Below the pieces are notes generated by a model. That model worked only from the letters and a program-made list of their open reading frames with translations, was not told the origin of the DNA and did not search any database. From an uncultured Clostridia bacterium (GTDB lineage Bacteria; CAYTYR01; UBA6262): 64,000 nt of DNA. This document shows, piece by piece, positions 3,313 through 63,648 of the stretch (its first letter is position 1; each line of letters begins with the position of its first letter). A program made the position numbers and the translations under genes. The stretch covers positions 130,754 through 194,753 of the forward strand of contig CAYTYR010000001.1 in the NCBI GenBank assembly GCA_964441745.1. Reading direction: 5' to 3'.

Positions 3313-3948
3313 TTAAGCCTGCTGCTGCCTATTTTTTACAAACAATAAGGGGAAAACTATGTCACTGACACAACAGGGCAGCCAGACCGCCAAGAATAAG
3401 AAGATAAAGATAATAACATAAGAAAACCAGCCAAATCCCACTACCTGGGCCATAATAATATGAAATAAAGACGCCCAGGTGCTGAATAGTACATGCAGAC
3501 TGTGGGGAAATTTCGTAGCCGGTTTATAATAAGCTACCAGTATCCCGGCTAGAGCTAAAGGATTGACCAGCCACCATTTTTCAATAAAGCCCAGATGGAC
3601 ACCCCGGTTTGGCATACCTAATAAATATTCAGCTAGGTACGGGATCAGGGAATCACTGATCGTAGCTATCCCTACTGACCCCACATAACCTATTATAGTT
3701 AAAAGCCAGAAATTACATTTACCCCGGAGACAATTAAGCCCTACCCGGGAACAGGTATGGAGTTTATACATTGAAGCCGTGACTAACGCGCTTAAAAACA
3801 CATGCAAAGGATGTAGTATGTAAAAAATATTATAGGCCCTATCAGTTGTAATCTTTAAGGAAAAAGCCATAATGCCCATGCCAGTAATAGTACCGAATAT
3901 CGTGAAAGGAATATGTTTCTTCAATTCTTTAAAAATAAGCCCGGGCAA
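3313..3948 (-). CDS. Integral membrane protein, unknown function
   Basis: 211 aa with 5-6 predicted hydrophobic helices and no recognisable motif. Confidence 0.4.
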   Translation of the reverse strand: MPGLIFKELKKHIPFTIFGTITGMGIMAFSLKITTDRAYNIFYILHPLHVFLSALVTASMYKLHTCSRVGLNCLRGKCNFWLLTIIGYVGSVGIATISDSLIPYLAEYLLGMPNRGVHLGFIEKWWLVNPLALAGILVAYYKPATKFPHSLHVLFSTWASLFHIIMAQVVGFGWFSYVIIFIFLFLAVWLPCCVSDIVFPLLFVKNRQQQA

Positions 3949-3949
3949 G

Positions 3950-6701: not shown

Positions 6702-6707
6702 AAGAAT

Positions 6708-9030: not shown

Positions 9031-9046
9031 TTGGCTATACCTCTTT

Positions 9047-9400
9047 TCATATTTTAAGTAAATAATCTGCTATCGCCCGGTATAATGTGCTAACTGCCAG
9101 GATAGAACAATGCAAGTGGTCTTCAGGCAGATACTTGATCTGCCCAATGATCTCCCCTGGTGAAATGCACAGCGCTTTTTCAATGGTCTGCCCATGGGCT
9201 AGAGCCGCGGTGATAGCCCCGCACGATTTCGTGGCCGCACATCCTTCGGTATAGAACTTCACCTCTGTTATCAATTTATTTTCAATGATCAAATAAAATT
9301 CCATTGAATCTCCGCACGGCCCTTCTAAAAAGGCCGAGCCAGTCGGATCGTTCATTCTGCCAAAATAATAATCATCATCATGTAGCCTATTTTTATCCAT
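9047..9400 (-). CDS. NifU/IscU-like Fe-S scaffold domain protein
   Basis: GPCGDSME ... FYTEGCAATKS ... HCSILA conserved Cys/His ligands of the IscU/NifU N-domain. Start placed at the internal Met (9400), because the longer ORF would overlap the upstream gene. Confidence 0.7.
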   Translation of the reverse strand: MDKNRLHDDDYYFGRMNDPTGSAFLEGPCGDSMEFYLIIENKLITEVKFYTEGCAATKSCGAITAALAHGQTIEKALCISPGEIIGQIKYLPEDHLHCSILAVSTLYRAIADYLLKI

Positions 9401-39769: not shown

Positions 39770-39868
39770 AGCGGGGTCCTTGCTTTTTTATTCTATCTCT
39801 TTTCACCTTAATCTACTGCTTTATAAAGCTCTCCGAGCTTATTTTTAATCTGTGGAATCGTTTTAAAG

Positions 39869-39941
<73 letters not shown>

Positions 39942-40520: not shown

Positions 40521-40592
40521 TATAACCTCTTTGTTTTGTTTAATCTGTGCCGCGCCCGCCGAAGCTTTAGTGGCGGGTAATCGTTTTAAAAA

Positions 40593-40683
40593 CGGAGAGG
40601 CTGGGATTCGAACCCAGGGTACAAGTTTTCACTCGTACAACCGCTTAGCAGGCGGCTGCCTTCAGCCACTCGGCCACCTCTCC
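40593..40683 (-). tRNA. tRNA-Ser (anticodon GCT), class II with long variable arm
   Basis: Acceptor GGAGAGG/CCTCTCC, D-arm GCCGAGTGGCTGAAGGC, anticodon loop CTGCTAA, long variable stem-loop, T-arm GGGTTCGAATCCC. 91 nt. Confidence 0.85.
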
Positions 40684-40710
40684 AATGCTCACTCGCTTCG
40701 TTCGCTCCGC

Positions 40711-41321: not shown

Positions 41322-42689
41322 TCATGCGGGGTTCTCTGTATTTTTTGCTTCCAGAGCTAATCTTTTCATCTGCTCAGCCATGTACAGCGGCAGGGTCAAA
41401 ACCTTATCATACCAGGAAAGTTTATCCTGTGAAAAACGAATACCCAGCGCTGAATTCTTTTCTGCCATAAACAGTTTTAGCGACCTCAGCGTGCCGGTCT
41501 TGCCGGCCTTGACTTCCACCGGCAGGATCAAAGCATCCACTGCCGTCACATAATCAACTTCGGCGGAACTGCTTTTTTTATCACGCGCCCAGAAAAAAAG
41601 ACCGGGCTCTAGATAACTGTCGGCATAGGCCAGTAATTCCTGTCCTATAAGTTGTTCCGCCACTGCACCGGCATTAATCTGAATAAAATCAGTCGTTAAG
41701 GCAAGCTCTGACTGCAAACCACAAACATTCTGCATGAGGCCCACATCAAGAAAATTTAATTTGAATTTCGTTTCATTGGTTTGCGCTCCCAAAGGAAGCC
41801 CTGACGCGGCAGTAGCATATACCGGACAAATAATCCCCGCTAATTTCAAGAGATTGAGAGCTTGTTTAATATCTCTTGATTTGCTATCAGGATCAATATT
41901 CGCGTATTTAATGCGACTACCGACCAGTTTTGGAGCTTCAGAAAATACCTTTTGCAGGTATTTATGTTCGGATAATTTCGCATATTTACCAAAATCCCCG
42001 CGATATGTTTGCAATAGAGAACTTTGGATGCGCTGACAATTAACATAATTCTTACTCTCCAGGTAATCTTTGACTACCGCCGGCATACCACCCACTATAA
42101 GATATCTTCGCAATAGCTCCAATAGCTTTTGATGTACCGTATCATCTATTGCGCTATTTAGTTTTATTTCCCGCAGATGACACCGCAGCTGCTCGTTCCC
42201 TGAGGCAGTTAGAAATTCGCCAAAAGACAAAGGCCCGAGATATATATATTGAATCCTTCCTACCGGCATTCTAAAATTGGAGCTGTCAAGAGCAAATTCC
42301 ATCAGTGAGCCGGCTCCGATCACCGCTATTCGGTTACACTTCTCCTTGAAATACCGCAGGGCCATTATTGCGTTGGGACATTCCTGTATCTCATCAAGAA
42401 AAAGCAATGTATTCTCTGCTTCTATCGTCACCCCCATGAGCAGTTGTAATTTATTAATGATCTCAAGAGGATCAAACGTATCAAAACACTGCTTGAGCTC
42501 AGGCCTGAATTCAAAGTTGACGACAACCACATTTTTAAAAGCTTTTTTCCCAAAATCTTCAATAAGGTAGCTTTTACCTACCTGCCGCGCGCCTCGCAGT
42601 AGCAAGGGTAGTCGCTCTTGGTATTCTTTCCATTTAAACAATTCTTGTTCCAAATCTCTTTTCATGGCAATCCCTCTTATAATGGTCAA
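41322..42689 (-). CDS. AAA-family ATPase (AAA_14 + DUF4143 architecture)
   Basis: LLRGARQVGKSYL Walker A, LFLDEIQ Walker B, and the C-terminal DUF4143-like region. Confidence 0.7.
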   Translation of the reverse strand: MTIIRGIAMKRDLEQELFKWKEYQERLPLLLRGARQVGKSYLIEDFGKKAFKNVVVVNFEFRPELKQCFDTFDPLEIINKLQLLMGVTIEAENTLLFLDEIQECPNAIMALRYFKEKCNRIAVIGAGSLMEFALDSSNFRMPVGRIQYIYLGPLSFGEFLTASGNEQLRCHLREIKLNSAIDDTVHQKLLELLRRYLIVGGMPAVVKDYLESKNYVNCQRIQSSLLQTYRGDFGKYAKLSEHKYLQKVFSEAPKLVGSRIKYANIDPDSKSRDIKQALNLLKLAGIICPVYATAASGLPLGAQTNETKFKLNFLDVGLMQNVCGLQSELALTTDFIQINAGAVAEQLIGQELLAYADSYLEPGLFFWARDKKSSSAEVDYVTAVDALILPVEVKAGKTGTLRSLKLFMAEKNSALGIRFSQDKLSWYDKVLTLPLYMAEQMKRLALEAKNTENPA

Positions 42690-44037: not shown

Positions 44038-45513
44038 TCATTTCGCTTTAAATTTCAAGGCTCGTCCTGATCCTTGCGACACAACAAATCCGCTTTCAGA
44101 TAACACCTTCATATCGCGTACAAATGTTTGGTTACTTACTTTAAAGTGTATCCTATATGTTTTATTTGAAAAAGCCATCTTCTCATTAACCATCAATCTT
44201 AATGTCTCTATCTGCCGTTCATTTAAACCTAACTTTCTAAGATCGGTCTGGCGCTCTTCCGGGATACTCGGCACTAAATCCAGAATCTTGTCTCCGGGAC
44301 CAAAAAAGCGGGTTACAAAGAACTCACCTTCTTCTTCAAACACAGGGACAGACAGCCCATGGGCTTTCATTAGCTTTTTCATTTTGCTGATTCCGGTGCC
44401 AAAGCGCTCCATATCCATGGTTTCATGGAAAATATGACAAATCGCTTCATTGCGCGTAGCATGATGCCCTTCAAGCTTCTTGATATTAAGGCCTGGTAAT
44501 AAACCGCCAGGATTACTAACTTCCACTCGATCATCGAAAATTGAAACCATAATTGGAGCTCCACTTTTTGTGTAATCGCGATGTGCTATGGCATTTATGA
44601 TGGATTCACGCACAGCTTCGTATGGATATTCAGGTATATCGACCCGTTTGAACTCGACGATCTTATTGGCTAATCTAGTATTGCGGATAAAAAAAGATTT
44701 CACTTCATCAAGCATCTTATAAATCGGACCTTTGATTTCCTGTGAGTCAATAAACTCCGAACGAGTCGTTCCTTTATAGCGAGCTATACGTATTTCATGA
44801 TGGGAAATATGTTCAGAAGGAGCTTTTCCAAAGAAAAGAAGAGCGGTATTAGTGGGATGCAAATCCCCATCCTCCTTTCTTATAACCTTAAGGGTGTCAA
44901 TAAGAAATTTCCTTATTGTTGTCTTTGGAATGGCAACTTTCAATTTAACCGCACGATTTTGTAGAAAATCTCTTACTGCCTGCTCATCGATAGACTCATA
45001 TCCAAGATCTCGATGTATTGCTTTATCAAAGGGGCCTTTTGCGGATTCTATTTTATCTTCAAGAAAAGAATTAAGGCTGTCAAGAACTTGTGTTTTTAAT
45101 TCATCAATATTTAGAAAACGCTTATAAATAAAGTTCGTTCTGATATTTTTAACAAAGTTCTGTGTCTCCTGGTCCCGCTTGGAATCATCTGAAGAATCAC
45201 CTTTGATAAATGCAATTATCTCCCTGTCTGAGTGTGTTTTTATAAAATGTTGAAATTCACTTTCCGTAGCAGAGAGATTATCCTTCCCTTTATACCCATA
45301 ATTCTTACCAATTATGCACACGTAAATATTGCTATCAGCGACGTGTTTAAGATAGATTACCGCCGGTGACTTGCCTTTAGCAGGCAGATCTTCAAATAGA
45401 AAAACATCAAAAAACCTTTTAAGCGTGGCATTTCTTTCTACTACTTCTTTTATGGCAAAGCGTTCAGCTTTTAGTTCTTTCTGATTTGCGCTTACGAATA
45501 TTTTATATTTCAT
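44038..45513 (-). CDS. DUF4062 - AlbA_2/Schlafen-like divergent-AAA - HATPase_c_4 fusion protein (COG2865-type, putative DNA-binding/defence-associated)
   Basis: N-terminal MKYKIFVSANQKELKAERFAIKEVV matches DUF4062. The central KVAIPKTTIRKFL…GDLHPTNTALLFFG matches the AlbA_2 domain. The C-terminal IINAIAHRDY…GAPIMVSIFDDRVEVSNPGGL matches RecG-C/HATPase_c_4. Confidence 0.6.
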   Translation of the reverse strand: MKYKIFVSANQKELKAERFAIKEVVERNATLKRFFDVFLFEDLPAKGKSPAVIYLKHVADSNIYVCIIGKNYGYKGKDNLSATESEFQHFIKTHSDREIIAFIKGDSSDDSKRDQETQNFVKNIRTNFIYKRFLNIDELKTQVLDSLNSFLEDKIESAKGPFDKAIHRDLGYESIDEQAVRDFLQNRAVKLKVAIPKTTIRKFLIDTLKVIRKEDGDLHPTNTALLFFGKAPSEHISHHEIRIARYKGTTRSEFIDSQEIKGPIYKMLDEVKSFFIRNTRLANKIVEFKRVDIPEYPYEAVRESIINAIAHRDYTKSGAPIMVSIFDDRVEVSNPGGLLPGLNIKKLEGHHATRNEAICHIFHETMDMERFGTGISKMKKLMKAHGLSVPVFEEEGEFFVTRFFGPGDKILDLVPSIPEERQTDLRKLGLNERQIETLRLMVNEKMAFSNKTYRIHFKVSNQTFVRDMKVLSESGFVVSQGSGRALKFKAK

Positions 45514-50433: not shown

Positions 50434-51519
50434 TTATTTCTTTTTCTTTACATATTTTTTCTTAGGCTTTACGGACAGCGCTTTCATATTATCTTCAATC
50501 ATCTTTACGGTCTTATCAAAATCACTCTGTGTTTTATCTGAAAGTTTTATCTGATCAGCGTAAAACTTCTCATATTCTTTCTCAGCAAATTCTTTAGCTA
50601 TTTCATGCGATATCTTCCCGGCATGCGTCAAAATATCCCTTTCATTTAATGAAAGAAAACCATTCAATTTTGTTATCCAGTTTTTCATAGTCATTGGAAT
50701 ACGCCTCATTGCCTGGCCTTCAGCAAATATCAGGTATTGCTCTGCAAGATTATTAAGTTCAAGCAATTCCTTCTCATTAAGATAATTTTTTGCTGTTGTT
50801 ATGTCATGCTTACGAGGTTTGTCTCCGCGCCAATTAGTAAGCCCCATGTGAGGCTTTTGGTTGTCGGCTCTTTCATAAATAATTTCCGCGGCTGTCTTGC
50901 CCGTAATTGCCCAGTGCATTTTGTTCTGAACTGTTTTAAAAAAATCTATACTTATCTCAAGGGTTGGATCATAGTCGACACTTGTTGCATAAATATCTGT
51001 GATTTTCTGGTAAAAGCGACGTTCAGAAGTGCGTATATCCTGAATACGTCTAAGCAGTTCCTCAAAATAATCAAATGGATTATCAGGATTCTTAAGCCGT
51101 TCATCATCTAAAACAAAACCTTTTACTATATACTCACGCAACCTCTGTGTTGCCCATTGTCTGAACCGTGTGGCAATATGCGACTTTATTCTGTACCCTA
51201 CAGATATAATAACATCAAGATTATAAAAATCAATGCTTCTGGTAACCGTTCGGGTACCTTCGTTTTGAACTGTCAAGAATTTCTTGACAGTTGAATCCGG
51301 ATTAACTTCTTTTTCTTCGAAAATGTTTGAAATATGAAGGCTTATGTTCTGTTTAGTAGTCTGAAAAAGATCCGCCATTAGCTGCTGGCTAAGCCACACT
51401 GTTTCACCTTCAAACCGCACATCAATTTTTGTCTGCCCGTTTTCAGTCTGATAGATGATAATTTGAGATCTATCACGATTGTCGTTTCTTTCCTCCATCT
51501 CCACTCCTTTAAACCACAT
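50434..51519 (-). CDS. RhuM-family (virulence-protein RhuM/Fic-DOC-like) protein
   Basis: The IIIYQTENGQTKIDVRFEGETVWLSQ…RFRQWATQRLREYIVKGFVLDDERLK pattern is typical of RhuM. 361 aa; the true start is probably the internal Met at about 51498. Confidence 0.65.
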   Translation of the reverse strand: MWFKGVEMEERNDNRDRSQIIIYQTENGQTKIDVRFEGETVWLSQQLMADLFQTTKQNISLHISNIFEEKEVNPDSTVKKFLTVQNEGTRTVTRSIDFYNLDVIISVGYRIKSHIATRFRQWATQRLREYIVKGFVLDDERLKNPDNPFDYFEELLRRIQDIRTSERRFYQKITDIYATSVDYDPTLEISIDFFKTVQNKMHWAITGKTAAEIIYERADNQKPHMGLTNWRGDKPRKHDITTAKNYLNEKELLELNNLAEQYLIFAEGQAMRRIPMTMKNWITKLNGFLSLNERDILTHAGKISHEIAKEFAEKEYEKFYADQIKLSDKTQSDFDKTVKMIEDNMKALSVKPKKKYVKKKK

Positions 51520-51561: not shown

Positions 51562-52509
51562 TCAGTTATCGAAATTAGCATTAAGCTTCTCTATCTCTTT
51601 CCTGAGCTGGCTGTCTTCTTGCATTTCCCGCTCTATGCTGCCCGCCGCCTTACTGGCTGCCGAGCAGCTGATACCAAATATCTTACCTATTTCTTCATTG
51701 TTTAAATTACTATACCTCTTTAGCAGATAGATCGCTACCTTTTTCTCTTTGATACGATACTTCTTCATCTTGCATGGCTCGGACATATTGATGCCATATT
51801 CCTGGCTGATCAAATCCATGATGTCTTTGACGTCTCTCGGTCCTTTTAGTTCCTCTTTATAGGAAAAATCTTTACTGGCTACCTTCTCTTTCAGAATCTT
51901 AAGCTTTTCCTTGATAAATGATGGTTCCCCTAAGATAAATCCGGCATAAATGCCTTTGAGCGGAGTGTCTTTATTCCCTATGCCTTCTGCTGCGTATTGA
52001 CGATATTGTTCAGTACCAATAGAAATAGCCTCTCTGATCTGTTTCTTATCTATGTATCCATCGCCATCTTTCTTTAAATACCCTTGATAGCTGGAATATT
52101 TAAAATCTTCCGGTTTCGGTACGATCTTAGCCCTGACCGGATTCAAGTGAATATACCTGGTCAGTTCCAATAGGTAGTTGTCCTTATCCACCAGGATAGA
52201 CTTGTATCTGCCCTGAAAAACATGTCCAGATTTATGACATTTGAGATTGTAATAGGTGGTATAGGAGGAATTCACATAGTGCATGATCTTGGAGAGATTG
52301 GGCTGGGTGGTTTCCAGCAGCAGATGGTAATGGTTATTCATCAAAACATACGCATACAGATAGAAGTTATACTTGGCTTTGGCATTAAGCAGATATTTAA
52401 GAAATTGCTGATAATCATAATCACTGACGAAGATCTTCTTCCGGTCATCGCCACGGCTGGTGATATGATAGCAGCAATTTTCGCCTTGTAATCGATACGG
52501 TCTGGCCAT
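51562..52509 (-). CDS. IS200/IS605-like Y1 (HuH) transposase fused to a C-terminal DnaA-domain-IV-like HTH (copy 1, intact)
   Basis: HuH motif NNHYHLLLE, catalytic Tyr region (YIHLNPVRA). C-terminal segment LKRYSNLNNEEIGKIFGISCSAASKAAGSIEREMQED resembles the DnaA C-terminal HTH. Confidence 0.7.
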   Translation of the reverse strand: MARPYRLQGENCCYHITSRGDDRKKIFVSDYDYQQFLKYLLNAKAKYNFYLYAYVLMNNHYHLLLETTQPNLSKIMHYVNSSYTTYYNLKCHKSGHVFQGRYKSILVDKDNYLLELTRYIHLNPVRAKIVPKPEDFKYSSYQGYLKKDGDGYIDKKQIREAISIGTEQYRQYAAEGIGNKDTPLKGIYAGFILGEPSFIKEKLKILKEKVASKDFSYKEELKGPRDVKDIMDLISQEYGINMSEPCKMKKYRIKEKKVAIYLLKRYSNLNNEEIGKIFGISCSAASKAAGSIEREMQEDSQLRKEIEKLNANFDN

Positions 52510-52797
52510 AGGTCATATTTTACTATCTTGCTTCTTCTTTGTCAATCTATTTCCCATTTCAAGGACTGACCCCGTTGTCTCCTTTGCCATTGTTATTCTC
52601 CAAATCTGCCCGCTTCCCGGTGGCCACAACTCCCTGCTGACGGCACCGTCTGAAGCCATTGCCACGGTATACTATTCAATATACCATTCCCGAAATTAGT
52701 ATACCGTTGCCTATTACCCTGTTTGTTACCTCATTCGGGGCGTTATTACCCTATTCGCGCCATTTTCTCGCACCACTGGTAAGAGAAATACCTTTTT

Positions 52798-53244: not shown

Positions 53245-54168
53245 TTAATCTTTCTTCGTTATAATTTTCTTTAACTGTCGAACCGCATGAGCATGCTTAT
53301 CGTCGCCCATCTTTGCAAGATTCGATAGCTTCCATTTAACCGCTGGCATATCTTGAGCGCCTTTAACGCCCAAAAGATCCCACTTCGGCGCTCTTTCTTT
53401 AAATGAGATCAAAAAAGCGCGTTCATCCTCTGTTATCCGTCTATTAATTTCCTCAACTAAGGTTTTTCTGACGCGCACTAATTCTTCATACTTCACGTCA
53501 AATGAAGCCATTCCCGCGAACTCTTTTTCAAAAACCGGTTTCATATCCTTGAAATTCGGCGATAACAGTTCCGAGATTGGACGATTATGGCTTATAAGAT
53601 AAACAAGGAACGATTTACGGACTTGTTCTGTAATCCCTTCGTTTCTAAGAAGCAACATGATGTCGAAGATATCCCGCGGATGTTGTCTGTCAAGTGCCGC
53701 GCATATCTTGGAACCGTAAAGCTCAGAAAATGCCAGTGTCTTTGTAGACACGAATTTTTCAAAAACCTCCTCAGCCTTTTTGCAAAGATCTCTTTCCTCG
53801 GGCCCGAATAAAGACCCTCGAATAACATTATTCGGTTCGACTTTAACGATAGCATTTTGCTTTTTAACATAAAGTTTGGAAATAAATCCTTTTGCAGAAT
53901 CCGCTTTCTCCTCTATCAACACGGAAGGCATACTCGAAGAAATGCGTTTCGCTATCGACTTTAGCTGATCGCTGATAGCTTTGATCGTTTCCTTTCGGGA
54001 ACTAAGGCGCAAATAAGTCAGATCGATATCAACGGAAAGGCGCGGCATGTCACGCACGAAAAAATTGATCGCCGTTCCGCCATGTAAAGCGAAATCAGTG
54101 TCCGTGGTCATATACGGGAGTATGGAGATGAGAAGCTCGGCCTGCTGATAGAATAAATTCTTATTCAT
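53245..54168 (-). CDS. abiEii: AbiEii/AbiGii-family nucleotidyltransferase toxin (type IV TA / abortive infection)
   Basis: FALHGGTAINFF…SVDIDL (NTase GS…D.D signature of DUF1814/AbiEii); 307 aa. Confidence 0.75.
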   Translation of the reverse strand: MNKNLFYQQAELLISILPYMTTDTDFALHGGTAINFFVRDMPRLSVDIDLTYLRLSSRKETIKAISDQLKSIAKRISSSMPSVLIEEKADSAKGFISKLYVKKQNAIVKVEPNNVIRGSLFGPEERDLCKKAEEVFEKFVSTKTLAFSELYGSKICAALDRQHPRDIFDIMLLLRNEGITEQVRKSFLVYLISHNRPISELLSPNFKDMKPVFEKEFAGMASFDVKYEELVRVRKTLVEEINRRITEDERAFLISFKERAPKWDLLGVKGAQDMPAVKWKLSNLAKMGDDKHAHAVRQLKKIITKKD

Positions 54169-54177
54169 AATCTCCTG

Positions 54178-54942
54178 TTATTTGGGAACGACTATTTTAT
54201 ACTTGCTGTCATAATGGCCATTATTGCAAAGAGACCTCTTCCCTGTTCCAAAATTAACCTTTTCAAGATTCAATTTCTTGACCCACGCATGATTATTCTT
54301 CTCGGCTAAGTACATGAATAGCCTTTTCGTCTTAACAGAGCCGCATTTTTCTAAAAGCTCTTGAACCATGCTCGGGCGAAGCGTCGTGAGGCCGGACATT
54401 ATCTGATCCAGTTCATCAAAGGATTCTCTTAGCGGAACGTTGTAGCATAATTCTATAACGGCTCTTTCTGCCGAGGATATCTTGATCTCATAGTTCCCTG
54501 AATTATATGTTGTAAGCCCCTGCCCGGTCTCATCTCCAAAAAGTCCAGTCATCACATATCGCACATCAACTTCCCATTTGTAGTTTTTAAACCATTCAGG
54601 AAGCTTTTCGTTTTTGGCTCCAAAAAGGATAATCTTTGCTTGTTTAAAATTTGCCGGAAGATAATGCGCGCTGCCCAATAATTGAAGAGCAGTCTTTCCC
54701 GCAGGATGAACGGACATATTTAACTGCGTTTGCAATGTATACAGCCCGCCATTCCAGTCGACATTTTCTCCGGCCCGCTTAAAAGCTCCTTGCCCTATCC
54801 GTTCTATCCAACCGCTCTTAACATATGTTCCGGCTAATTGGCGATACACACCCTGCCCTTCGAGCCAAGTGGATACAGCAACGGTATTTTTAGGCCAGCT
54901 TCTAAGTAAATTGTTTATTATACTTCCATTTTGTCTATCCAT
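54178..54942 (-). CDS. abiEi: AbiEi-family antitoxin/transcriptional regulator
   Basis: The N-terminal domain with GQGAFKR and the C-terminal domain match AbiEi. Positioned immediately upstream of abiEii with a 9-bp gap. Confidence 0.7.
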   Translation of the reverse strand: MDRQNGSIINNLLRSWPKNTVAVSTWLEGQGVYRQLAGTYVKSGWIERIGQGAFKRAGENVDWNGGLYTLQTQLNMSVHPAGKTALQLLGSAHYLPANFKQAKIILFGAKNEKLPEWFKNYKWEVDVRYVMTGLFGDETGQGLTTYNSGNYEIKISSAERAVIELCYNVPLRESFDELDQIMSGLTTLRPSMVQELLEKCGSVKTKRLFMYLAEKNNHAWVKKLNLEKVNFGTGKRSLCNNGHYDSKYKIVVPK

Positions 54943-55587: not shown

Positions 55588-56373
55588 TTAAATATATTGC
55601 GACATTTCTCTCTTTGGAAGTCTATTCTTCAATTGCCTCAATTCTTCCAGCTCTTTCCCATATTCCTGGGCTATAACCCCAGCTATTTCTTCTATCCCTA
55701 TATCTCCGACTATTTCCCGCTGATCTGCATAATCGCCGCCTGCTGCCTGCTCTTTCAGTTCCTTCAGCTTTTCTTTAATGAACTTTGTCCGGCCTAATAT
55801 AAACCCGCCATATACTTCCTTGAATGGATCTGCTTTATGATTTATTCCTTCTTCGTTAAATTCACGATAACTCATTGTGTCTAGGAATATCACCTGGCTG
55901 ATCTGCGCCTTGTCTATATATCCGTCTCCTTCTTTTGTGAGATACCCCTTATAGCTAGACCACTTGTATTCTTCTGGCTTTTTAGCCATCCCGGCCCTGA
56001 CCGGATTCAAGTGAATATACCTGGTCAGTTCCAATAGGTAGTTGTCCTTATCCACCAGGATAGACTTGTATCTGCCCTGAAAAACATGTCCAGATTTATG
56101 ACATTTGAGATTGTAATAGGTGGTATAGGAGGAATTCACATAGTGCATGATCTTGGAGAGATTGGGCTGGGTGGTTTCCAGCAGCAGATGGTAATGGTTA
56201 TTCATCAAAACATACGCATACAGATAGAAGTTATACTTGGCTTTGGCATTAAGCAGATATTTAAGAAATTGCTGATAATCATAATCACTGACGAAGATCT
56301 TCTTCCGGTCATCGCCACGGCTGGTGATATGATAGCAGCAATTTTCGCCTTGTAATCGATACGGTCTGGCCAT
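55588..56373 (-). pseudogene. IS200-like Y1 transposase/DnaA-HTH fusion, copy 2 (frameshifted: HTH now in another frame at about 55500-55585)
   Basis: The first 128 codons plus 70 bp of 5' flank are identical to copy 1 (52129-52575 vs 55995-56441). The DnaA-like HTH (MKRVTALSNIEIGKYFNISSAAVSK) is out of frame downstream. Confidence 0.6.
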
Positions 56374-56511
56374 AGGTCATATTTTACTATCTTGCTTCTT
56401 CTTTGTCAATCTATTTCCCATTTCAAGGACTGACCCCGTTGATTTTATTCTGGGGATTTAATTCTCATTTATTCAAGATTATTAAAAGCTAATAGAAATT
56501 ATATCTTGAAT

Positions 56512-56640
56512 CTATTTATTTCTTTTTTTAATAACTTCTACTACTGCCGTGCTTGGACGCTGCCGAGCTTTTTCCACAGGGATGAACTCGCCGGTTTTTG
56601 CATCACGGCCAATTTTAAATCCTTTTGTCTTATTAGACAT
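56512..56640 (-). CDS. 42-aa protein MSNKTKGFKIGRDAKTGEFIPVEKARQRPSTAVVEVIKKRNK
   Basis: My own translation; AAAGGAG SD 7 nt upstream. Not in the ORF track (below the length cut). Confidence 0.45.
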   Translation of the reverse strand: MSNKTKGFKIGRDAKTGEFIPVEKARQRPSTAVVEVIKKRNK

Positions 56641-56711
56641 AAATAAGCTCCTTTCATAGTATTTTGATTCATAGTTTGTCTTATGAACCAAAGTTTTGTT
56701 GATTAAATAAT

Positions 56712-57203
56712 TTAAATCTTCTCCACAAATCGTTTCAAAATTGCTTGCGTAATATAAGGATTCTTTTCCGCTATTTTATTTGCAATTGTTATAGCCTCTC
56801 TGCTTACCAGATATCCTTTTTCAACGAGTAATTTCATTAAATTTAAACCCCAAATAGTTTCTATTCCGATTTTATTACACTCAGTAATAAGCTTTTTATC
56901 ACTGCTAATACACGGACAGTTCTTATCACGAGATAGTATAAAACATAATCTATCTTGAAAAGATAGAGGGCCACTTCTCTTAGAAGCTTCTTGTAATTGA
57001 TTCAAGCTCGGCTCAACAGTCACCAGGCCTAAGCTTTCTGCTTGACCCGGTAATATCTGCTGAACCTCTTGAAGAGTAGCTTTTGACACGTAGATTTGTA
57101 AGCAGTGCTTTGAAAATAACTTCAGGATCTTGGGTTCCGTTAGTATATAGTCAATCAATACACTGGCATCACAAATGACTCCCTTTACTGAAGAATCTGC
57201 CAT
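56712..57203 (-). CDS. PIN-domain protein (DUF4411-like)
   Basis: GVICDASVLIDY N-terminal acidic motif of PIN nucleases. Overlaps the upstream XRE-ImmA gene by 19 nt. Confidence 0.55.
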   Translation of the reverse strand: MADSSVKGVICDASVLIDYILTEPKILKLFSKHCLQIYVSKATLQEVQQILPGQAESLGLVTVEPSLNQLQEASKRSGPLSFQDRLCFILSRDKNCPCISSDKKLITECNKIGIETIWGLNLMKLLVEKGYLVSREAITIANKIAEKNPYITQAILKRFVEKI

Positions 57204-58297
57204 GATTTAGTTTTTTCCCTTAAATCAAGAAGTGAAATACCTAATATTTCTGATGCTCTGCTTTGAGATATTTTTTCACTGGTCAATGCGTCTCTGATAA
57301 GACCTTCAAGGTAATCTTCTGAAAAATCTATTTCTTCTAATGGACAAGGTTCTTTATGCCCTTTTAAATCTTTATTAAATCTTCTTTTGTATTCCACGTT
57401 GAAGGATTTCCAAATATCTTTATTAGTAACTCCTTCTTCAATAAGTCTAAATAAAACAGTCCCATAACTTACCTTAAAAATACGTTTCACATAAAATATC
57501 CGTTCTATGGTTGGTAATCCGCGGCCTTCTTCCCAGATACGCTTAAAAATATTTTGAGGCATCAGGAAATACGAAGCAAATATATCCGCCTCTTTTTCTT
57601 CCCGGTCGTTTTCGGCTAATTTGTTAATATCAAAAGAATATTCATGTAAAAGTATATGGGCTAGCTCATGTGCTAAAGTAAATATTTTACGTTCTACGCT
57701 AATATCTTTTGAGTCATTAACTCCTATAGCTGGGCCATAATCATCTTCACTTAAAGAAAATCCAAAACTCCCAGCCATCTTAAAATCGATTGCCGAAATT
57801 ATAATCCCTGCTGATTCTAGAACTGAAGGTAAATCAGGGATGGGGTCTTCTTCACATATCGCTAATTTTGAGCGTACAGACATTGATAGGCTTTTAAGTT
57901 GTTCATTAGAAAAAGATTTCTTAGCTTCTTTCAGCCCAGCTAAACTAAACGGCTTCCTGCAATTGAGAATTTCCTCGAGATTTCTTAAATCCTTAAGTTT
58001 GAAGGCAAATTTATGTACAACGTCTTCTCTTATAAGTATTCCCTTTTTTGAAAGGTTCTGAGATCGGAATCTAAGAGATTTCAATTCAGGGGCAGGTTCA
58101 ATAATAGATTGAATATTTACTTTAAGAGCAGAAGCAATATTATCAAGAGTGGATACCCGTGGCTCTGCTTTTGCCTGCTCAATAGAAATATAAGCAGCTC
58201 TGCTTAACTTTGCTTTTTCAGCAGCTTCTTCTTGAGTAAAGCCGCTTAACAGCCTATATCGTCTTATATTTTTTGCTACTATGTCCTTGATAGACAT
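57185..58297 (-). CDS. XRE-family HTH fused to ImmA/IrrE-family zinc metallopeptidase (COG2856-type)
   Basis: HTH (IVAKNIRRYRLLSGFTQEEAAEKAKLSRAAYISIEQAK) and the HEXXH motif LAHELAHILLH. Start placed at the Met preceded by GGGGGAGGGG (58297). Confidence 0.7.
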   Translation of the reverse strand: MSIKDIVAKNIRRYRLLSGFTQEEAAEKAKLSRAAYISIEQAKAEPRVSTLDNIASALKVNIQSIIEPAPELKSLRFRSQNLSKKGILIREDVVHKFAFKLKDLRNLEEILNCRKPFSLAGLKEAKKSFSNEQLKSLSMSVRSKLAICEEDPIPDLPSVLESAGIIISAIDFKMAGSFGFSLSEDDYGPAIGVNDSKDISVERKIFTLAHELAHILLHEYSFDINKLAENDREEKEADIFASYFLMPQNIFKRIWEEGRGLPTIERIFYVKRIFKVSYGTVLFRLIEEGVTNKDIWKSFNVEYKRRFNKDLKGHKEPCPLEEIDFSEDYLEGLIRDALTSEKISQSRASEILGISLLDLREKTKSWQILQ

Positions 58298-58320
58298 TGC
58301 CCCTCCCCCTTGTGGTAGCA

Positions 58321-58340
58321 TAGTATAGTAAACTATACTA
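58321..58340. promoter_or_regulatory. 8-4-8 palindrome TAGTATAG-TAAA-CTATACTA overlapping a TTGACA-N17-CTATAT promoter for the XRE-ImmA/PIN operon
   Basis: Seen in sequence on the minus-strand sense, 25-45 nt upstream of the ATG. Confidence 0.4.
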
Positions 58341-58378
58341 ATTAATATATAGCATAATATATGTATAGTTGTCAAGTC

Positions 58379-59818
58379 TTATTTAGCCTGTAATATTGCC
58401 TCATGAAGCTTAACCATCGCTAAGGTATCGCGTTTGCAATAAGCGAGTAAATTCCTGCGAATCTTCTCTTTCTCTGTAGGTTTTTCAATTAATCCCATTG
58501 CCATAAAAGCAAAAAGTGCTGCTGCGCTACCGCCTTCTTTAATTTCTAGATCACTATAATCAAGTTCAGCTACCATTACTGGTAAGACCTTCTTAATCGA
58601 GTAGCTACCGCAAAAACCAGGGTGATAATAATGGCTCCTTAGAAGTGCGCAGAGGTCAAAAAGCCGTGCGATAATATTATTCAGAGGATCACTTAAATCG
58701 GGAAAGATTTTTGCGAGACCGCTAATAATACCTTTTTCATATGAAGAATAGACTATAATACTACCTTTACCCTTTAATATAAATACTAGGTTTTCTGCAA
58801 TAGTTCGCCTGCAGTCATGTGAAGGGTCAGCAAGATATTCGAAATGGGCTATTTCTGTACCCGGCGCAGAACATTGGTGGATAGAATATTGAGTTACTAT
58901 TTTCTCATAAGGCCCAATTTCATCATAAATAGGTAAAGCCGTTGCGCAGGTTTCAAAGTCAAGATACCAAGCTGGCCAAATGATTGAGTTTATTTCTTGG
59001 TTTAATTGTGGTGAGACGAAAGACTTTTTGGCACATACTGACTGCCATACTCGTTTTTGTGTATCAGACAGCTTAATACCAGGTGGGATATGATCAATTT
59101 GATAAACACTATGTTCGGATAGCTCCTTAAAGAGCTTTTCTGATATCCTCGGAATATCAAAGATGTGATTACTAATTCCTTGTCCGGAACAAGCTTCGAA
59201 TACAGGACAGTTTTTGCATTCTAAGATCAATTGCGGCTTGGGCGAGATATCTAAATTCAATAACTCACTTAATCGATCGGCTTCTGCATTAAATATATCA
59301 GCCTTTTCTTTTGCTTCACTTGTTATATCCTCTTCAATAAATAAATCTTTTACAGGCATACCTTTTCGATATTCTCCTGAAACCAGCAATAATGATATAG
59401 AGTTAACTTTAATTCCTGCACGAGTCATAACTGCGAATGTATATGCAGCATCTTCAACGTATTCTGGTTTTACATCCTTGCCTGATTTTACTTCTCTAAG
59501 ATGCCAACCTTTACTGTCTTTGTATATAACATCAGCCCTGGCACCCAATCCATCTGCTGAAAACGCAGCTTCAAAAAGAATATGGTTAGTGTGTAGTGCC
59601 TTACCTGTTGCAGCAACTGCCTCCTGCATTGCACCAGGGATTAATACCCCTGAATCATAAAGTAACCGAGCCTTTTCGGTGATCATATTCCCTTCTAAAC
59701 GCCTAAGCTTTATATCTTCGGATACAATTTCAGGCAGTTGATTATTATGTGTTAGCCACCCCAAGCGTGGACAAATAAATGCGTTAAGAAAAGTGGTTTT
59801 TGCTATTAATTTTGCCAT
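58379..59818 (-). CDS. DUF2779-family protein (N-terminal Cas4/RecB-like PD-(D/E)XK nuclease + C-terminal RNase-H-like 3'-5' exonuclease)
   Basis: EVKSGK nuclease motif, Cys cluster ECKNCPVFEAC, and YLDFETCATALP (DEDD-like). Confidence 0.6.
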   Translation of the reverse strand: MAKLIAKTTFLNAFICPRLGWLTHNNQLPEIVSEDIKLRRLEGNMITEKARLLYDSGVLIPGAMQEAVAATGKALHTNHILFEAAFSADGLGARADVIYKDSKGWHLREVKSGKDVKPEYVEDAAYTFAVMTRAGIKVNSISLLLVSGEYRKGMPVKDLFIEEDITSEAKEKADIFNAEADRLSELLNLDISPKPQLILECKNCPVFEACSGQGISNHIFDIPRISEKLFKELSEHSVYQIDHIPPGIKLSDTQKRVWQSVCAKKSFVSPQLNQEINSIIWPAWYLDFETCATALPIYDEIGPYEKIVTQYSIHQCSAPGTEIAHFEYLADPSHDCRRTIAENLVFILKGKGSIIVYSSYEKGIISGLAKIFPDLSDPLNNIIARLFDLCALLRSHYYHPGFCGSYSIKKVLPVMVAELDYSDLEIKEGGSAAALFAFMAMGLIEKPTEKEKIRRNLLAYCKRDTLAMVKLHEAILQAK

Positions 59819-59834
59819 AACTACTCCAATATTC

Positions 59835-60323
59835 TCAGCTTATCTCAAGCCATTTATTGTTTACATAATCTCCTATTCCACTTGGATGAAACGAATTGTA
59901 TAATTTTTCAAATTCCATCTTTGCATTATCATAAGAGTCATTTGGAATGATTTTTGCCCTTTTTGCCAGGTAAAGTAGCCCTATTGTTGGCCCCCTAGAC
60001 ATCCCCTCATCACAATGTACTAACACATTACGACTTTTAATCCAATTATCAATAAAATCTAGAACACTCATAAATGTCTTTGGACCGCTCCAATCGTATA
60101 AATATGCTGCACCATCTACCCAATTTAATGAGAGATGATTATCTTTTTCATAAATTATGTAATTAGGATGGGTTTTATTAGGTTTATTATATTTACGATT
60201 CCAATTCATATACCTGTAATGTATCGTTTGGGTAGCATGGACAAAAGCCCAATCGTTATCGTTAGTATTATTTATATCTTGAATAGACCCAATATAAAGG
60301 TTTGTATTAGGAATCTTTATCAT
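59835..60323 (-). CDS. Cys-based dual-specificity/protein-tyrosine phosphatase
   Basis: VLVHCDEGMSRGPT is the HC(X)5R P-loop signature. Confidence 0.7.
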   Translation of the reverse strand: MIKIPNTNLYIGSIQDINNTNDNDWAFVHATQTIHYRYMNWNRKYNKPNKTHPNYIIYEKDNHLSLNWVDGAAYLYDWSGPKTFMSVLDFIDNWIKSRNVLVHCDEGMSRGPTIGLLYLAKRAKIIPNDSYDNAKMEFEKLYNSFHPSGIGDYVNNKWLEIS

Positions 60324-60423
60324 ATTAGATCTGCCTTAAATTTAATCAGTTTTGTGTCTCCTGATATCTTGGATATCTTCAAGAAGAATAAAGGTCTTTT
60401 CAGGGAGTTTAAGCACAGTGGTT

Positions 60424-61338
60424 CTATTTTGGGAAGCAAAGTTCCCGGTAATTGCAGAAACCACATATTTTCATATTACTGGTCGTAGCAAATTCCTTTT
60501 TCTCTTTCGGGATATTCTGCTCGATGCTTTTAAGCGCTGCGTACATCTCTCCGGTTTCCGTTTTGACCGTATCGCTGAATGCCTTAATATCCGACACACT
60601 AACCTTTATTGAAATCTCCGAATACTTCGGTAGGAGATAGGCTGTCCCAGGGAATATCCTTGCCGGCTCCTTGCTAAAATTGTTTGCTGCCCAGGTAGAG
60701 TAGCCGATAAGCTGTTTTGAATGCTTTTTCTCATCAGGTTTGCCTGTTTTCCAATCAAGTATGAATATATCGCCGTCAACAGGGAAAAGGAAATCCACTT
60801 TGCAGTAGGCTTTCATACCGTCTATCCTGGTTTCGCCATATCCCGGAGGCTCTATTATCCAGCCTGTTTTGTTTGTTATAGCTTTTTCAATTATCCAACG
60901 AAACCTGTCACTTCCGATGAAGTTATTAAGTCCCATCTTCACGTTTTCATAGATCCAGTCAGTATCAATGTTCTTAAGCTGTTTGTAATAGACCTCGGCA
61001 AAAGTTTTGGCACCGCAGTATTCATCCGTTTTCTTTCGCGCGTAATCTAAGAATCTTTCACTGTCGACCGGCTCCTCGCTTTTCAAAAGTCTTTCCAAGA
61101 ATGCCTTTATAGTATCGTGGATGATATTGCCTGTCTCAAGGGCCGTCGAAGTCATAGATTTTAAAGCGTTAATCTTTGAGCGCGGGCACTCAGTATCGTA
61201 TTTTCCGTAATAGTCGAAATAATACTGCCTCCGGCACAGTTTGAACTTGTCGTAACGCGACAATGACCAGCCCAGTATATCCGAGTAATCGTAGCGTTTG
61301 ATGTTATTTAGTTTCTCGTTCATTTTTTTTGCTCCCAT
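60424..61338 (-). CDS. PD-(D/E)XK nuclease with Cas4-like Cys4 (Fe-S) arrangement
   Basis: RIDGMKAYCKVDFLF…ILDWKTGK (D…D/E.K), one N-terminal Cys and a C-terminal CGFCNYRELC. Confidence 0.65.
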   Translation of the reverse strand: MGAKKMNEKLNNIKRYDYSDILGWSLSRYDKFKLCRRQYYFDYYGKYDTECPRSKINALKSMTSTALETGNIIHDTIKAFLERLLKSEEPVDSERFLDYARKKTDEYCGAKTFAEVYYKQLKNIDTDWIYENVKMGLNNFIGSDRFRWIIEKAITNKTGWIIEPPGYGETRIDGMKAYCKVDFLFPVDGDIFILDWKTGKPDEKKHSKQLIGYSTWAANNFSKEPARIFPGTAYLLPKYSEISIKVSVSDIKAFSDTVKTETGEMYAALKSIEQNIPKEKKEFATTSNMKICGFCNYRELCFPK

Positions 61339-61488
61339 TTTCTCTTAATATCCCTATTACAAATACTCCCTTTTTATAAGTTCCTTCTTATAAATATACA
61401 GTATCTTTAGCAGTTATGACAAGCAACTTGCTTTATTACTTTCTTCAGCTAATTTTCAGACAAATTCCCGTTTCAGTGCCTGACCCCG

Positions 61489-61650
61489 TTGTTTTCCTGA
61501 TGAATATTTTCTTCCGGTCATCGCCACGGCTGGTGATATGATAGCAGCAATTTTCGCCTTGTAATCGATACGGTCTGGCCATAGGTCATATTTTACTATC
61601 TTGCTTCTTCTTTGTCAATCTATTTCCCATTTCAAGGACTGACCCCGTTG
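61489..61650 (-). mobile_element. Miniature remnant of the Y1-transposase element (first ~36 codons + 5' flank only), bounded by CTGACCCCGTTG on both sides
   Basis: 61507-61650 is identical to 52437-52575 and 56301-56441. Confidence 0.6.
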
Positions 61651-61690
61651 TCTCTGTTTCATGACCCCGTTGTCTCTGACTGACCCCGTT
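61636..61690. repeat. Three tandem GACCCCGTTGTCTCT units (REP-like)
   Basis: CTGACCCCGTTGTCTCTG-TTTCAT-GACCCCGTTGTCTCTGACT-GACCCCGTTGTCTCTG seen in sequence. A related pair GAACCCGTTACTTCT / GACCCCGTTACTTCC lies at 46908-46938. Confidence 0.6.
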
Positions 61691-62510
61691 GTCTCTGAAG
61701 TAAAGTGAGACATTGGGTTGCTCTTACCGAAGCTTCGTAAAAGGACCCTTCCTTTTCCAAATAATCTTTGAATTCCTTAAGCTTCGAGATTAATACTTTC
61801 TTATTATTTCTGGCTTTAATAACAGCTTCAGAAGCATTGTCATTTTGGGTTAATAGTAACACGCCTTTGACTGGCAAATCAATACTAGCAAAATGGTAAT
61901 GATTGACTAACTTGATAGCTCCAAGAAGGGCCAGCTCTTCCCTTGCTTCAGGAGAAGCTCTAATTCCAATTTTCTCTTGAAAAAGCATTGCAACTCGATC
62001 CTGTAGGAATACCAATCGCTCATAAGGCTCATGACAGTCCCTATGCTGTAGAGTCCCATCCCCCTCTTGAAATGGAAAAGAGTCACTCATTGCCTCAAGC
62101 ACTAAGTTAAGTGCAAAAATACAATCTTGATCTAAGAAAAGTTGATGATCGGAATATACTTTCTTAAGTTTATCATATTCCCCGGAAGGTACCGGTTCAT
62201 TCATCCATCCTTCATCCGGATCGTATCCTACCTCAGACCACCTTCTCTTAGTTTCAGCTATATGGCTAAGAATTGAGGCAAAAGCTAACCGTTGATGGTC
62301 AAAAAATAGCGATGTTCGAAGCTGATGAAGTTGGCGCTCATATAAAGCCGCTTGCATATTAGCATTCAATTCTGCTTTATATGCTTCTAGCCTTTGTGCA
62401 TACTCATGCTTTATACTCTCACGTATGCGTTCGGAAATCCAATGGCGAAAGAGCCAGACAATTATAGCGCCAGAAAGACCGCCTGATACTATATTGAGCA
62501 TTAATTCCAT
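61691..62510 (-). CDS. Membrane-anchored hypothetical protein (N-terminal TM helix + roughly 250-aa cytoplasmic domain)
   Basis: MELMLNIVSGGLSGAIIVWLF TM segment. The start at 62510 avoids a low-complexity extension, and the 3' end is uncertain because the ORF runs into the repeat array. Confidence 0.4.
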
Positions 62511-62646
62511 AGATATTGCCACCTCCAATCATTAACTATATATTAATTAGGTTTTTAGGAACACTCATAAAATTAACCCTTCTAATCTTGTTTAGTCTTT
62601 GCTGTTTTTTTGCTTCAATATCCCTTGGCTTCCTATGTTTTATTAT

Positions 62647-63648
62647 TTAAAAAGGAATTTCTTCTTCCATTGAGAGCTTATCAATTTTTTCGAGAAATTC
62701 TTTGACTGTATATGCATCTTTAACCCATTCGTTTTTATTGGAAGCCTCTCTTATACGTTGAATCTCTTCCTTCGTAACCCCTCCTTCTAATGATTCAATC
62801 CTTTTCATTATTTTACATGCTATAGAATGTCCATATGAATCTTCTAGCGCAATAAACAATGCTTCACGCATTTTAACTTTTGTTGATGGACTTTTTTGTA
62901 ATATTTTCACTACTTCTATTGCCATATTTTCTGACGACTCTATTGGAACAGACAATGATTGAGTTTCACTAATAAACCCATACGGGTCAAGACCATCCCT
63001 CACATGTATGATTAAAACTCCTTTTGCTACTGCAAAGCCAACTTCATGGTCTGTCCACTTACTTTCTCGAAAATGCGAAGTAAGTAATGCTAAAAATACA
63101 TCCATAGTACTAAGTGCAAGTTTGATCTCGCGTTGCCAAGGCAAAGTTGGTTCAATATCTTCGTGGGCTACAAAAGCCTCTATTTTGTACTTAGAAAGTT
63201 GCTTTTTTAGGTTCACTGCTTCTGTTTTATTTTCGTGTTGATGGCCTATAAACACTTTTAATAAATTTGCATCTCCCCATATTCTAGTTAGATTTTCATC
63301 TGTAATCAATCTTGAAAGTTCTGCAGATGGTTGATCTATAGGTAAAGGACGAATAACTACATTATTTAATACTTGGCTTCCCATACCCCTAAGCACTACT
63401 TGGAGCTTTGACTCAATTTCCTTTTCATATTTACTTAGATTTGATTCGATAGAGGCGAAAAGCTCAATCGATATATCTAAATAAAGAGTATAGTAATATG
63501 TGCCCCCATTCCAATTATCATATTCAGTTTCTTCAATGCTCGCCCTAGCACCCTCAATAATCTTAACAAGCATGGTCTTTTGTTGATGTCGATATAGGCT
63601 TGCCAATGTTGCTATAATACTATCTACATTAAAGGGTATCTCATTCAT
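62647..63648 (-). CDS. TIR-domain protein (C-terminal TIR, N-terminal domain unknown)
   Basis: The C-terminal half KVFIGHQHENKTEAVNLKKQLSKYKIEAFVAHEDIEPTLPWQREIKLALSTMDVFLALLTSHFRESKWTDHEVGFAVAKGVLIIHV follows the TIR pattern (FIShs..d…A..L…L…g…F…I..G..W…I…l…V.v.T..s..S.Wc..E.g.a). Confidence 0.55.
   Translation of the reverse strand: MNEIPFNVDSIIATLASLYRHQQKTMLVKIIEGARASIEETEYDNWNGGTYYYTLYLDISIELFASIESNLSKYEKEIESKLQVVLRGMGSQVLNNVVIRPLPIDQPSAELSRLITDENLTRIWGDANLLKVFIGHQHENKTEAVNLKKQLSKYKIEAFVAHEDIEPTLPWQREIKLALSTMDVFLALLTSHFRESKWTDHEVGFAVAKGVLIIHVRDGLDPYGFISETQSLSVPIESSENMAIEVVKILQKSPSTKVKMREALFIALEDSYGHSIACKIMKRIESLEGGVTKEEIQRIREASNKNEWVKDAYTVKEFLEKIDKLSMEEEIPF

Follow-up and report, generated by a model that had tools for sequence, protein, structure and literature searches.

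We analysed 64,000 nucleotides from an uncultured Clostridia bacterium (assembly GCA_964441745.1, contig CAYTYR010000001.1, positions 130,754 to 194,753; hereafter referred to as the window) and focused on a block of six genes, g1 to g6, at window positions 56512-61338. The listing of open reading frames (ORFs) and our reading of the sequence revealed six intact, co-directional ORFs on the minus strand, as the original prediction for this DNA had described. In reading direction, they encode a Cas4-like nuclease (g1), a cysteine-based phosphatase (g2), a DUF2779 nuclease (g3), a helix-turn-helix (HTH) protein with a metallopeptidase domain (g4), a PIN-domain protein (g5), and a 42-aa basic protein (g6; Table 1). 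The original prediction had interpreted this arrangement as one candidate defence operon. Our comparisons favor a different reading, namely that at least four defence-type units, each mobile on its own, have come together as a mosaic between RAYT/IS200-like repeats, which we consider likely, and that the six genes are not one operon-encoded system, because homologues of the six genes largely do not co-occur in other genomes.

The block is AT-rich (GC content 0.35-0.38 vs. 0.415 across the window) and is bracketed by 158-nt repeats corresponding to the 5' ends of RAYT/IS200-like genes, in agreement with the base composition and mobile-element surroundings noted earlier. Most of the predicted spacing was also reproduced, with 100 bp between g1 and g2, 16 bp between g2 and g3, and a 19-bp overlap of g4 and g5. 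The 3-bp gap claimed between g3 and g4 exists solely if g4 starts at TTG 58375, and widens to 81 bp with the ATG at 58297, which is preceded by GGGGGAGGGG. For g1, the likely start is ATG 61323 (299 aa), which has the better ribosome-binding site (RBS; GGGAG). The codon composition of g1 is host-like, with a GC content at third codon positions (GC3) of 0.51 that resembles the RAYT copies, compared with 0.25-0.33 in g2 to g6, and this difference argues for a history of g1 distinct from that of the rest of the block.

The predicted RosmerTA-type module g4-g5

Judged from its sequence, the block's well-supported functional unit is the pair g4-g5, a predicted toxin-antitoxin (TA) or abortive-infection module of the RosmerTA type. 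The g4 protein matched Pfam HTH_3 (8e-12) and Peptidase_M78 (1.6e-18), with the motif HELAH readable in the sequence, as well as 15 RmrA models of PADLOC (best 1.3e-28), PHROG 2439 (7e-48), and the NCBIfam spr1629 antitoxin family (1e-24, under the family cut-off). On its own, g5 gave a weak match to PIN_3 only in Pfam and nothing in PHROGs. Its family (~660 clusters at 50% identity) was more informative: 25 of 47 members matched PF01850, residues D12, D18, D84, and D102 were invariant or nearly so in the 47 homologues, and the PIN proteins 1o4w and 3ix7 of the PDB matched at E = 1.4e-3. The PIN assignment of the original prediction was therefore upheld, while its likeness to DUF4411 was not, with no match to that Pfam family for g5 or any of the 47 members. 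Between g3 and g4, the promoter region contains a perfect 9-bp inverted repeat (TAGTATAGT/ACTATACTA) at 58321-58340 and an extra ACTATAC half-site at 58363-58370.

We further found the pair in two other settings. A Logan contig from another sequencing run (L106) carries the module at positions 1254-2942, corresponding to window positions 58384-56695, with junctions at the g3 stop codon and 17 bp past the g5 stop codon. It is flanked there by a Trypsin_2 gene upstream and, downstream, by a 64-aa ORF unrelated to g6, followed by an AAA_14/DUF4143 gene. Positions 3277-4963 of this contig are 95.8% identical to window positions 42773-41088 (the PDC-S01/AAA_14-DUF4143 gene), and therefore the g4-g5 module of this close relative appears to be located ~14 kb away within the same island, without g1-g3 or g6. 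On the Methylomagnum plasmid NZ_AP019787, a gene for a 378-aa XRE/M78 protein (35% identity, E = 3e-67) lies directly 5' of a PIN homologue (42%). Because the pair recurs in both places, the comparison indicates that g4-g5 is a genuine two-gene unit. Its architecture, intact catalytic motifs, own promoter and operator, and mobility as a 1.69-kb unit are all direct observations.

RosmerTA (RmrT/RmrA; Millman et al. 2022; NetFlax node D25, PMC10440598) is a TA defence system with diverse toxins for which anti-phage protection has been demonstrated (bioRxiv 10.1101/2022.05.11.491447; PMC10440598). Consistent with this system, g4 joins an N-terminal XRE HTH to an M78/ImmA HExxH peptidase and is paired with a small overlapping partner gene, and previous work has described PIN-like toxins as partners of ImmA-type antitoxins (PMC10440598). 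The g4-g5 pair differs in its antitoxin-first order. The original prediction was thus right to see a TA-like module that recurs and has a promoter and operator of its own, and wrong to call it uncharacterised, given that the architecture is that of RosmerTA. In the ImmR/ImmA (ICEBs1) and IrrE/DdrO switches, too, an M78 peptidase is coupled with an XRE-type HTH repressor whose own promoter contains an operator palindrome; in contrast, g4 fuses the HTH and the peptidase in one protein, and its partner is a predicted PIN toxin rather than an integrase or repair regulon. By analogy with the family, g4 would use its HTH to repress the promoter of its own gene at the 9-bp inverted repeat, and would neutralise the PIN RNase g5. 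A phage cue acting via the M78 peptidase domain of g4 might then free g5, which would degrade RNA and abort the infection.

A phosphatase family near restriction-modification genes

The g2 protein has the P-loop HCDEGMSR and matched Pfam DSPc at 2e-7, with a score of 31.3 that is slightly under the cut-off of 33.5. Catalytic residues C104, R110, and D70, together with H103, were invariant in 30 homologues. Its AlphaFold model (pLDDT 95.6) matched dual-specificity phosphatases (DUSPs) in Foldseek with a probability of 1.0 and a TM of ~0.6-0.7, and the profile of the family alignment matched VHR/DUSP3 at 1e-8. The family comprises more than 150 homologues of ~162 aa with 55-70% identity across phyla, and members are annotated in Planctomycetota, Chloroflexota, Bacillota, Elusimicrobia, Omnitrophota, WOR-3, Bacteroidota, Saccharibacteria, and others; the distribution is patchy, and the family is horizontally mobile. 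It does not seem to be typically phage-borne, because a viral-contig scan with the phosphatase alignment returned a single distant match (32% identity). The family is absent from PADLOC v2, where g2 itself had a weak CARF_HEPN match only (5e-4), PHROGs gave only a weak match to a family of unknown function, and our literature searches found no description of a DSPc-type defence gene.

We then compared 104 phosphatase loci besides the window (75 after dereplication, 43 of these with at least 4 kb of flank). DNA similarity of ~100 of the loci to the window was limited to positions 60324-59841, that is, to the g2 ORF. Restriction-modification (R-M) genes were located within 7 kb in 21 of the 43 dereplicated loci that had 4 kb or more of flank, and included Eco57I-like Type IIG, Type ISP, HsdM/HsdR (Type I), and Type III Mod/Res enzymes. 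The phosphatase was usually the last gene of a co-directional run, often translationally coupled to the gene upstream (gaps of -4 to +5 bp). That upstream neighbour was hypervariable (HEPN, ThsB-TIR, OLD/AAA_15, DUF4238, DUF4365, HARE-HTH/PD-(D/E)XK, GNAT, and many unknowns). These results suggest that the family is defence-associated in other genomes. PrrC/Abi-type genes ride in hsd loci, as prrC does in the Type Ic prr locus, and elsewhere the phosphatase and a variable gene are similarly found at the 3' end of R-M operons. The window differs in this respect, as tblastn with representatives of five R-M gene clusters from other phosphatase loci matched no R-M gene in its 64 kb, and nothing points to the phosphatase as a latent effector.

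In ~17 dereplicated loci elsewhere, a hypervariable slot for one gene is enclosed between the conserved last ~130 nt of an Eco57I-like methyltransferase gene and the phosphatase. One locus (L002) contains three copies of this methyltransferase tail (5371-5511, 6681-6732, and 8938-9054) with a different gene after each, and further copies were seen in L035 (17-150 and 3217-3350) and L011 (2320-2460). The slots resemble a cassette array, the contents of which could swap via recombination between the conserved flanks. The tail element is absent from the window. A shared N-terminal peptide, KLTRQFIxSMDLPMKK, in three genes 5' of the phosphatase was considered as a partner-binding motif and rejected, as it results from the 3' end of the Eco57I-like methyltransferase gene being read out of frame.

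The P-loop consensus of the family is HCDQGQSRSPT (pattern HCxxGxSRxPT), with the general-acid Asp 34 residues upstream, and both the loop and this spacing resemble the protein-directed DUSP type. Given the profile match to VHR/DUSP3, we take the VHR P-loop, HCREGYSRSPT, to be the closer counterpart, and RNA and lipid phosphatases to be presumably less alike. VHR/DUSP3-like atypical DUSPs share with the family the fold, the P-loop pattern, and a general-acid Asp ~34 residues upstream; in contrast, the g2 family is ~18-20% identical to them and consists of compact 162-aa bacterial proteins in R-M operons or defence islands. With low confidence, we propose protein phosphatase activity as the most likely role of g2, which would service the defence proteins encoded beside it or regulate them. 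In one version of this proposal, it would reverse the phosphorylation of defence proteins by phage kinases. Such phosphorylation has been found to disarm defences (PMC13645617), in a paper that makes no mention of phosphatases of this kind. A broader possibility, which we regard as rather improbable at present, is that the family is an unrecognised and widely transferred "service" enzyme of immunity at the end of R-M and defence operons, which would keep defence proteins active (e.g., by removing the phosphates with which phage kinases, T7K among them, inactivate DNA-binding defence proteins) and would join a DUF2779 nuclease in a minority of loci, including this one.

Nucleases, the small ORF, and the coherence of the block

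The g3 protein matched Pfam Cas_Cas4 (1.3e-6) and DUF2779 (PF11074, 9.5e-36), and searches of PHROGs and of PDB sequences returned nothing for it. In an alignment of 35 DUF2779 proteins, D96, E109-x-K111, C16/C201/C204/C210, D287-x-E289, and Y460-x3-D464 were invariant or nearly so. Because the catalytic residues and the four cysteines are conserved, g3 is predicted to be an intact iron-sulfur (Fe-S) Cas4-like and DEDDy enzyme, which probably degrades DNA ends. This agrees with the published description of DUF2779 as a fusion of a Cas4-like nuclease and a DEDD exonuclease (PMC3985635; PMC13621843). MMSYN1_0389 of JCVI-syn3.0, in the same DUF2779/UU173 family, has the Cas4-like and DEDD(y/h) fusion and the catalytic D, ExK, DxE, and Yx3D; it has two of the Fe-S cysteines, whereas g3 retains four and lies in a defence island beside a phosphatase.

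The g1 protein matched PDDEXK_1 (1e-15), with RecB-type D...DxK and QxxxY motifs, C35, and C-X2-C-X5-C at 292-301 (C292/C295/C301), as well as the PADLOC model Aga_Cas4-like_Nuc over its full length (2.5e-14). Against TIGR00372, the cas4 equivalog, the Cas4-like proteins scored 19-20 bits (g1, 19) vs. a cut-off of 65. Together with the DSPc match of g2, these assignments bear out the enzymes named in the original prediction, that is, two Fe-S PD-(D/E)XK nucleases, one of them with a DEDD-like exonuclease domain, and a Cys phosphatase. In its catalytic core, 4-Cys Fe-S signature, and Aga_Cas4-like_Nuc match, g1 resembles solo and pAgo-associated Cas4-like nucleases. It differs from the latter in its surroundings: Tandem Repeats Finder detected no CRISPR repeat array in the window, PADLOC and partial domain scans of the window gave no cas genes beyond the Cas4-model matches, and the only pAgo matches in those scans were partial ones, on the protein at 44038-45513. 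No relative of g1 was present in the 104 other phosphatase loci, its sole plasmid homologues were solo genes in Bacillus cereus, and a PDB sequence search returned nothing. In this block, g1 appears to be an unlinked solo Cas4-like nuclease.

At the other end of the block, g6 was confirmed as a 42-aa basic ORF with a strong RBS (AAAGGAG, 7 nt from the ATG), which lies outside the conserved TA unit. It carries the motif GRDAKTGEFIPV, and counterparts with 55-67% identity occur in unrelated surroundings on plasmids of Paracoccus, Alteromonas, Hymenobacter, and Segatella, four distantly related genera (Table 1); PHROGs gave no match for it. Its distribution suggests an unlinked small ORF associated with mobile elements. 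The PLSDB gene table, itself incomplete, has no annotation for most of the counterparts, and g6 seems to represent a micro-protein conserved among mobile elements.

We next quantified the tie between the phosphatase and DUF2779 by searching the 44 dereplicated phosphatase loci that have 1.5 kb or more of downstream sequence, using a hidden Markov model of 120 g3 homologues. In 5 of the 44 loci, the window included, DUF2779 was the first or second gene downstream (position +1 or +2), and the rest of the flanks contained none. The two genes are co-directional in the window, in L079 (19-bp overlap), and in L017 (one intervening gene), and convergent in L072 and L104, the latter with a broken DUF2779 gene. 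The four DUF2779 proteins outside the window form their own subfamily (41-80% identical mutually, ~30% to g3), and the phosphatases beside them belong to basal lineages separate from the clade of the window. As both the DUF2779 subfamily and the phosphatase lineages differ, the window would represent an independent juxtaposition. The three closest g3 homologues (59-62% identity) had neither a phosphatase nor a Cas4-like neighbour, and their neighbours were unrelated mutually, including a reverse transcriptase, HipBA, a PDDEXK_4 protein, and a TPR protein. Taken together, the comparisons suggest that g3 is a solo nuclease that is loosely but recurrently linked to the phosphatase. Genes of 271-287 aa upstream of these homologues were considered as a conserved partner or as g1 relatives and rejected, being unrelated mutually and to g1. 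The closest homologue (62%) lies beside a 1,014-aa reverse-transcriptase (RVT_1) gene, a DnaG-like primase, and a ResIII/YagJ helicase, in surroundings (L108, 1813-4857) that may themselves be a defence locus.

These data bear on the alternative that g2 and g3, perhaps joined by a PD-(D/E)XK gene like g1 upstream, constitute a genuine nuclease-phosphatase defence module, in which the phosphatase would regulate the DUF2779 nuclease or prepare its substrates, either by stripping terminal phosphates from the ends of DNA or RNA or by acting on phosphates of the nuclease itself. The confinement of DUF2779 to the +1 and +2 positions, the involvement of two DUF2779 subfamilies and at least two to three phosphatase lineages, the overlapping phosphatase-then-DUF2779 order in L079, and the short g2-g3 gap in the window all speak for it. 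Conversely, 39 of the 44 phosphatase loci have no DUF2779, co-transcription is impossible in L072 and L104 because of their convergent genes, the closest g3 homologues stand apart from any phosphatase, g1 has no relatives in the other loci and a different codon composition, and the P-loop is nearer to protein-directed DUSPs than to RNA or lipid phosphatases. On balance, we regard such a module as unlikely.

A further alternative is that the upstream genes are housekeeping repair or recombination enzymes (RecB/AddB-like nucleases and an end-processing phosphatase) that lie beside a TA module by chance. The host-like GC3 of g1 would fit this, as would the quasi-essentiality of a DUF2779 member in a minimal Mycoplasma (PMC13621843). 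We nevertheless judge it highly improbable, with no helicase or other repair partner, scores far under the cut-offs of the NCBIfam RecB, AddB, and cas4 equivalogs, homologue contexts that were variable and island-like in every case examined, and a phosphatase that is patchy and horizontally mobile.

Still less credible, in our estimation extremely so, is the single anti-phage or anti-plasmid system of the original prediction, in which the XRE-ImmA/PIN pair would be the sensor for nuclease-phosphatase effectors. Its appeal comes from the packed, co-directional genes in a defence island with no predicted terminators between them. Against it, g4-g5 has its own promoter and operator and recurs at 97% identity elsewhere without g1-g3 or g6, with junctions exactly at the module borders; the gene combination was found in none of the 104 phosphatase loci or the closest DUF2779 loci; and g6 homologues occupy unrelated contexts. 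Nor did PADLOC match a catalogued multi-gene defence system with a nuclease and a phosphatase, as g1 and g3 matched only Cas4 and Aga_Cas4-like models. The original prediction had named homologues that never co-occur as grounds for giving up the single system, and we largely found this (g1 in 0 of 104 loci; g3, g4-g5, and g6 separate elsewhere), so that comparative context appears to have largely refuted it already. What survives of the operon interpretation is the defence island, the TA pair, and a defence-associated phosphatase family.

Several points weigh against our own reading of the block as a mosaic with a RosmerTA-type pair and a protein phosphatase. Terminator prediction gave no intrinsic terminator between any two genes of g1-g6, and the co-directional and tightly spaced genes may therefore be co-transcribed and cooperate locally even without conserved linkage. 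The phosphatase-DUF2779 adjacency arose in at least two independent subfamily combinations, and L017 and L079 each have a PD-(D/E)XK-like gene (HARE-HTH/PD-(D/E)XK) immediately before the phosphatase, echoing the nuclease-phosphatase-DUF2779 order of the window. Moreover, g5 matched no RmrT model in PADLOC v2.0.0, and the substrate of g2 is a guess from its P-loop type.

The surrounding island and implications

The block is a segment of a defence island that extends from ~41 to 64 kb and starts just after a tRNA-Ser gene (Table 1). The defence setting proposed originally was corroborated by AbiEi/AbiEii, a ThsB-like TIR protein, RhuM/PDC-S05, and PDC-S01 nearby. The position of the tRNA-Ala and tRNA-Ser genes is consistent with a tRNA-adjacent integration hotspot. 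The protein at 44038-45513 gave partial PADLOC matches to pAgo-associated SIR2-PNTD models (3e-23) and a pAgo model (6e-18). Directly after the TIR gene comes a gene for a 289-aa protein without a family match (61659-62528), and the two may form a further two-gene defence unit (GC3 of 0.25 and 0.33 for the TIR and 289-aa genes, respectively).

A RAYT/IS200-like gene (Y1_Tnp and DnaA_C-type HTH) is present in three copies, at 51562-52509, 55588-56373, and 61445-61582, which separate the cargo blocks. The sequence AACGGGGTCAG occurred 6 times vs. 0.62 expected, always on the minus strand, 5' of each RAYT copy and at the break point of the stump, and a 19-nt unit containing it forms three tandem copies at 61637-61698. 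A REP/RAYT-type element may mediate the shuffling of defence cassettes. The island appears to be rearranged between close relatives, since two ~96%-identical segments, the RosmerTA-type module and the PDC-S01/AAA_14-DUF4143 gene, are adjacent in L106 and 14 kb apart in the window. An exact look-up of g3 returned a 5,127-bp Logan contig of identical sequence that ends exactly at the flanking repeats, and exact-sequence look-ups of g1 (304 aa) and g4 (370 aa) returned no record.

Table 1 Features of the six-gene block, its module, and the island (window positions unless a locus is given)
Feature	Position	Strand	Description
g1	60424-61338	minus	304 aa; stand-alone Cas4-like Fe-S PD-(D/E)XK nuclease
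g2	59835-60323	minus	162 aa; VHR-like dual-specificity (Cys) phosphatase
g3	58379-59818	minus	479 aa; DUF2779, N-terminal Cas4-like Fe-S nuclease and C-terminal DEDDy 3'-5' exonuclease
g4	57185-58297	minus	370 aa from ATG; RmrA-like XRE-HTH and M78 (ImmA/IrrE) Zn-peptidase; predicted antitoxin, repressor, and sensor
g5	56712-57203	minus	163 aa; PIN-domain protein, predicted toxin; overlaps g4
g6	56512-56640	minus	42-aa basic ORF
g1 promoter-like site	61393-61422	minus	TTGTCA, 18-nt spacer, TATATT; 10/12 positions match, a consensus match only
g4 promoter/operator region	58298-58375	minus	TTGACA at 58375-58370; RBS GGGGGAGGGG
Mobile RosmerTA-type module (promoter, operator, g4, g5)	56695-58384	minus	1,690 bp; 96.7% nucleotide identity to L106
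Upstream flanking direct repeat	61497-61654	minus	158-nt family D1, 98% identity; promoter and first codons of RAYT/IS200-like gene
RAYT stump	61445-61582		45 aa; truncated upstream gene copy
REP-like 40-nt element	61453-61492	minus	Family D3; contains AACGGGGTCAG; at break point of truncated RAYT copy; left boundary of block
Downstream flanking direct repeat	56288-56445	minus	Promoter and 5' end of RAYT-like copy B (55588-56373); includes REP-like element 56403-56442
Third 158-nt repeat copy	52424-52581		
tRNA-Ala and tRNA-Ser genes	39868-39941 and 40592-40684		Directly before island start at ~41 kb
PDC-S01	41322-42689		
DUF4062/HATPase_c_4 protein	44038-45513		
RhuM/PDC-S05	50434-51519		
AbiEi/AbiEii	53245-54942		
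ThsB-like TIR protein	62647-63648		333 aa; TIR_2/ThsB-like domain; directly upstream of block
g6 counterparts	L115 2501-2614; L116 2501-2599; L117 2501-2596		

Taking the block for a new six-gene system would lead cloning experiments astray. The firm result is an additional RosmerTA-type module, with a predicted PIN toxin that is not yet in defence catalogues. The solo nucleases g1 and g3 belong to known but uncharacterised families, and the novel lead is the R-M-associated phosphatase family with its loose tie to DUF2779. This family is compact and well conserved from Saccharibacteria to Planctomycetota, and its members repeatedly close R-M operons at the 3' end, following a hypervariable gene slot. 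If the phosphatase does modulate or protect defence proteins, phosphatase-based regulation or counter-counter-defence would join the logic of bacterial immunity, and such a role would offer a direct test of the recent finding that phage kinases disarm defences.

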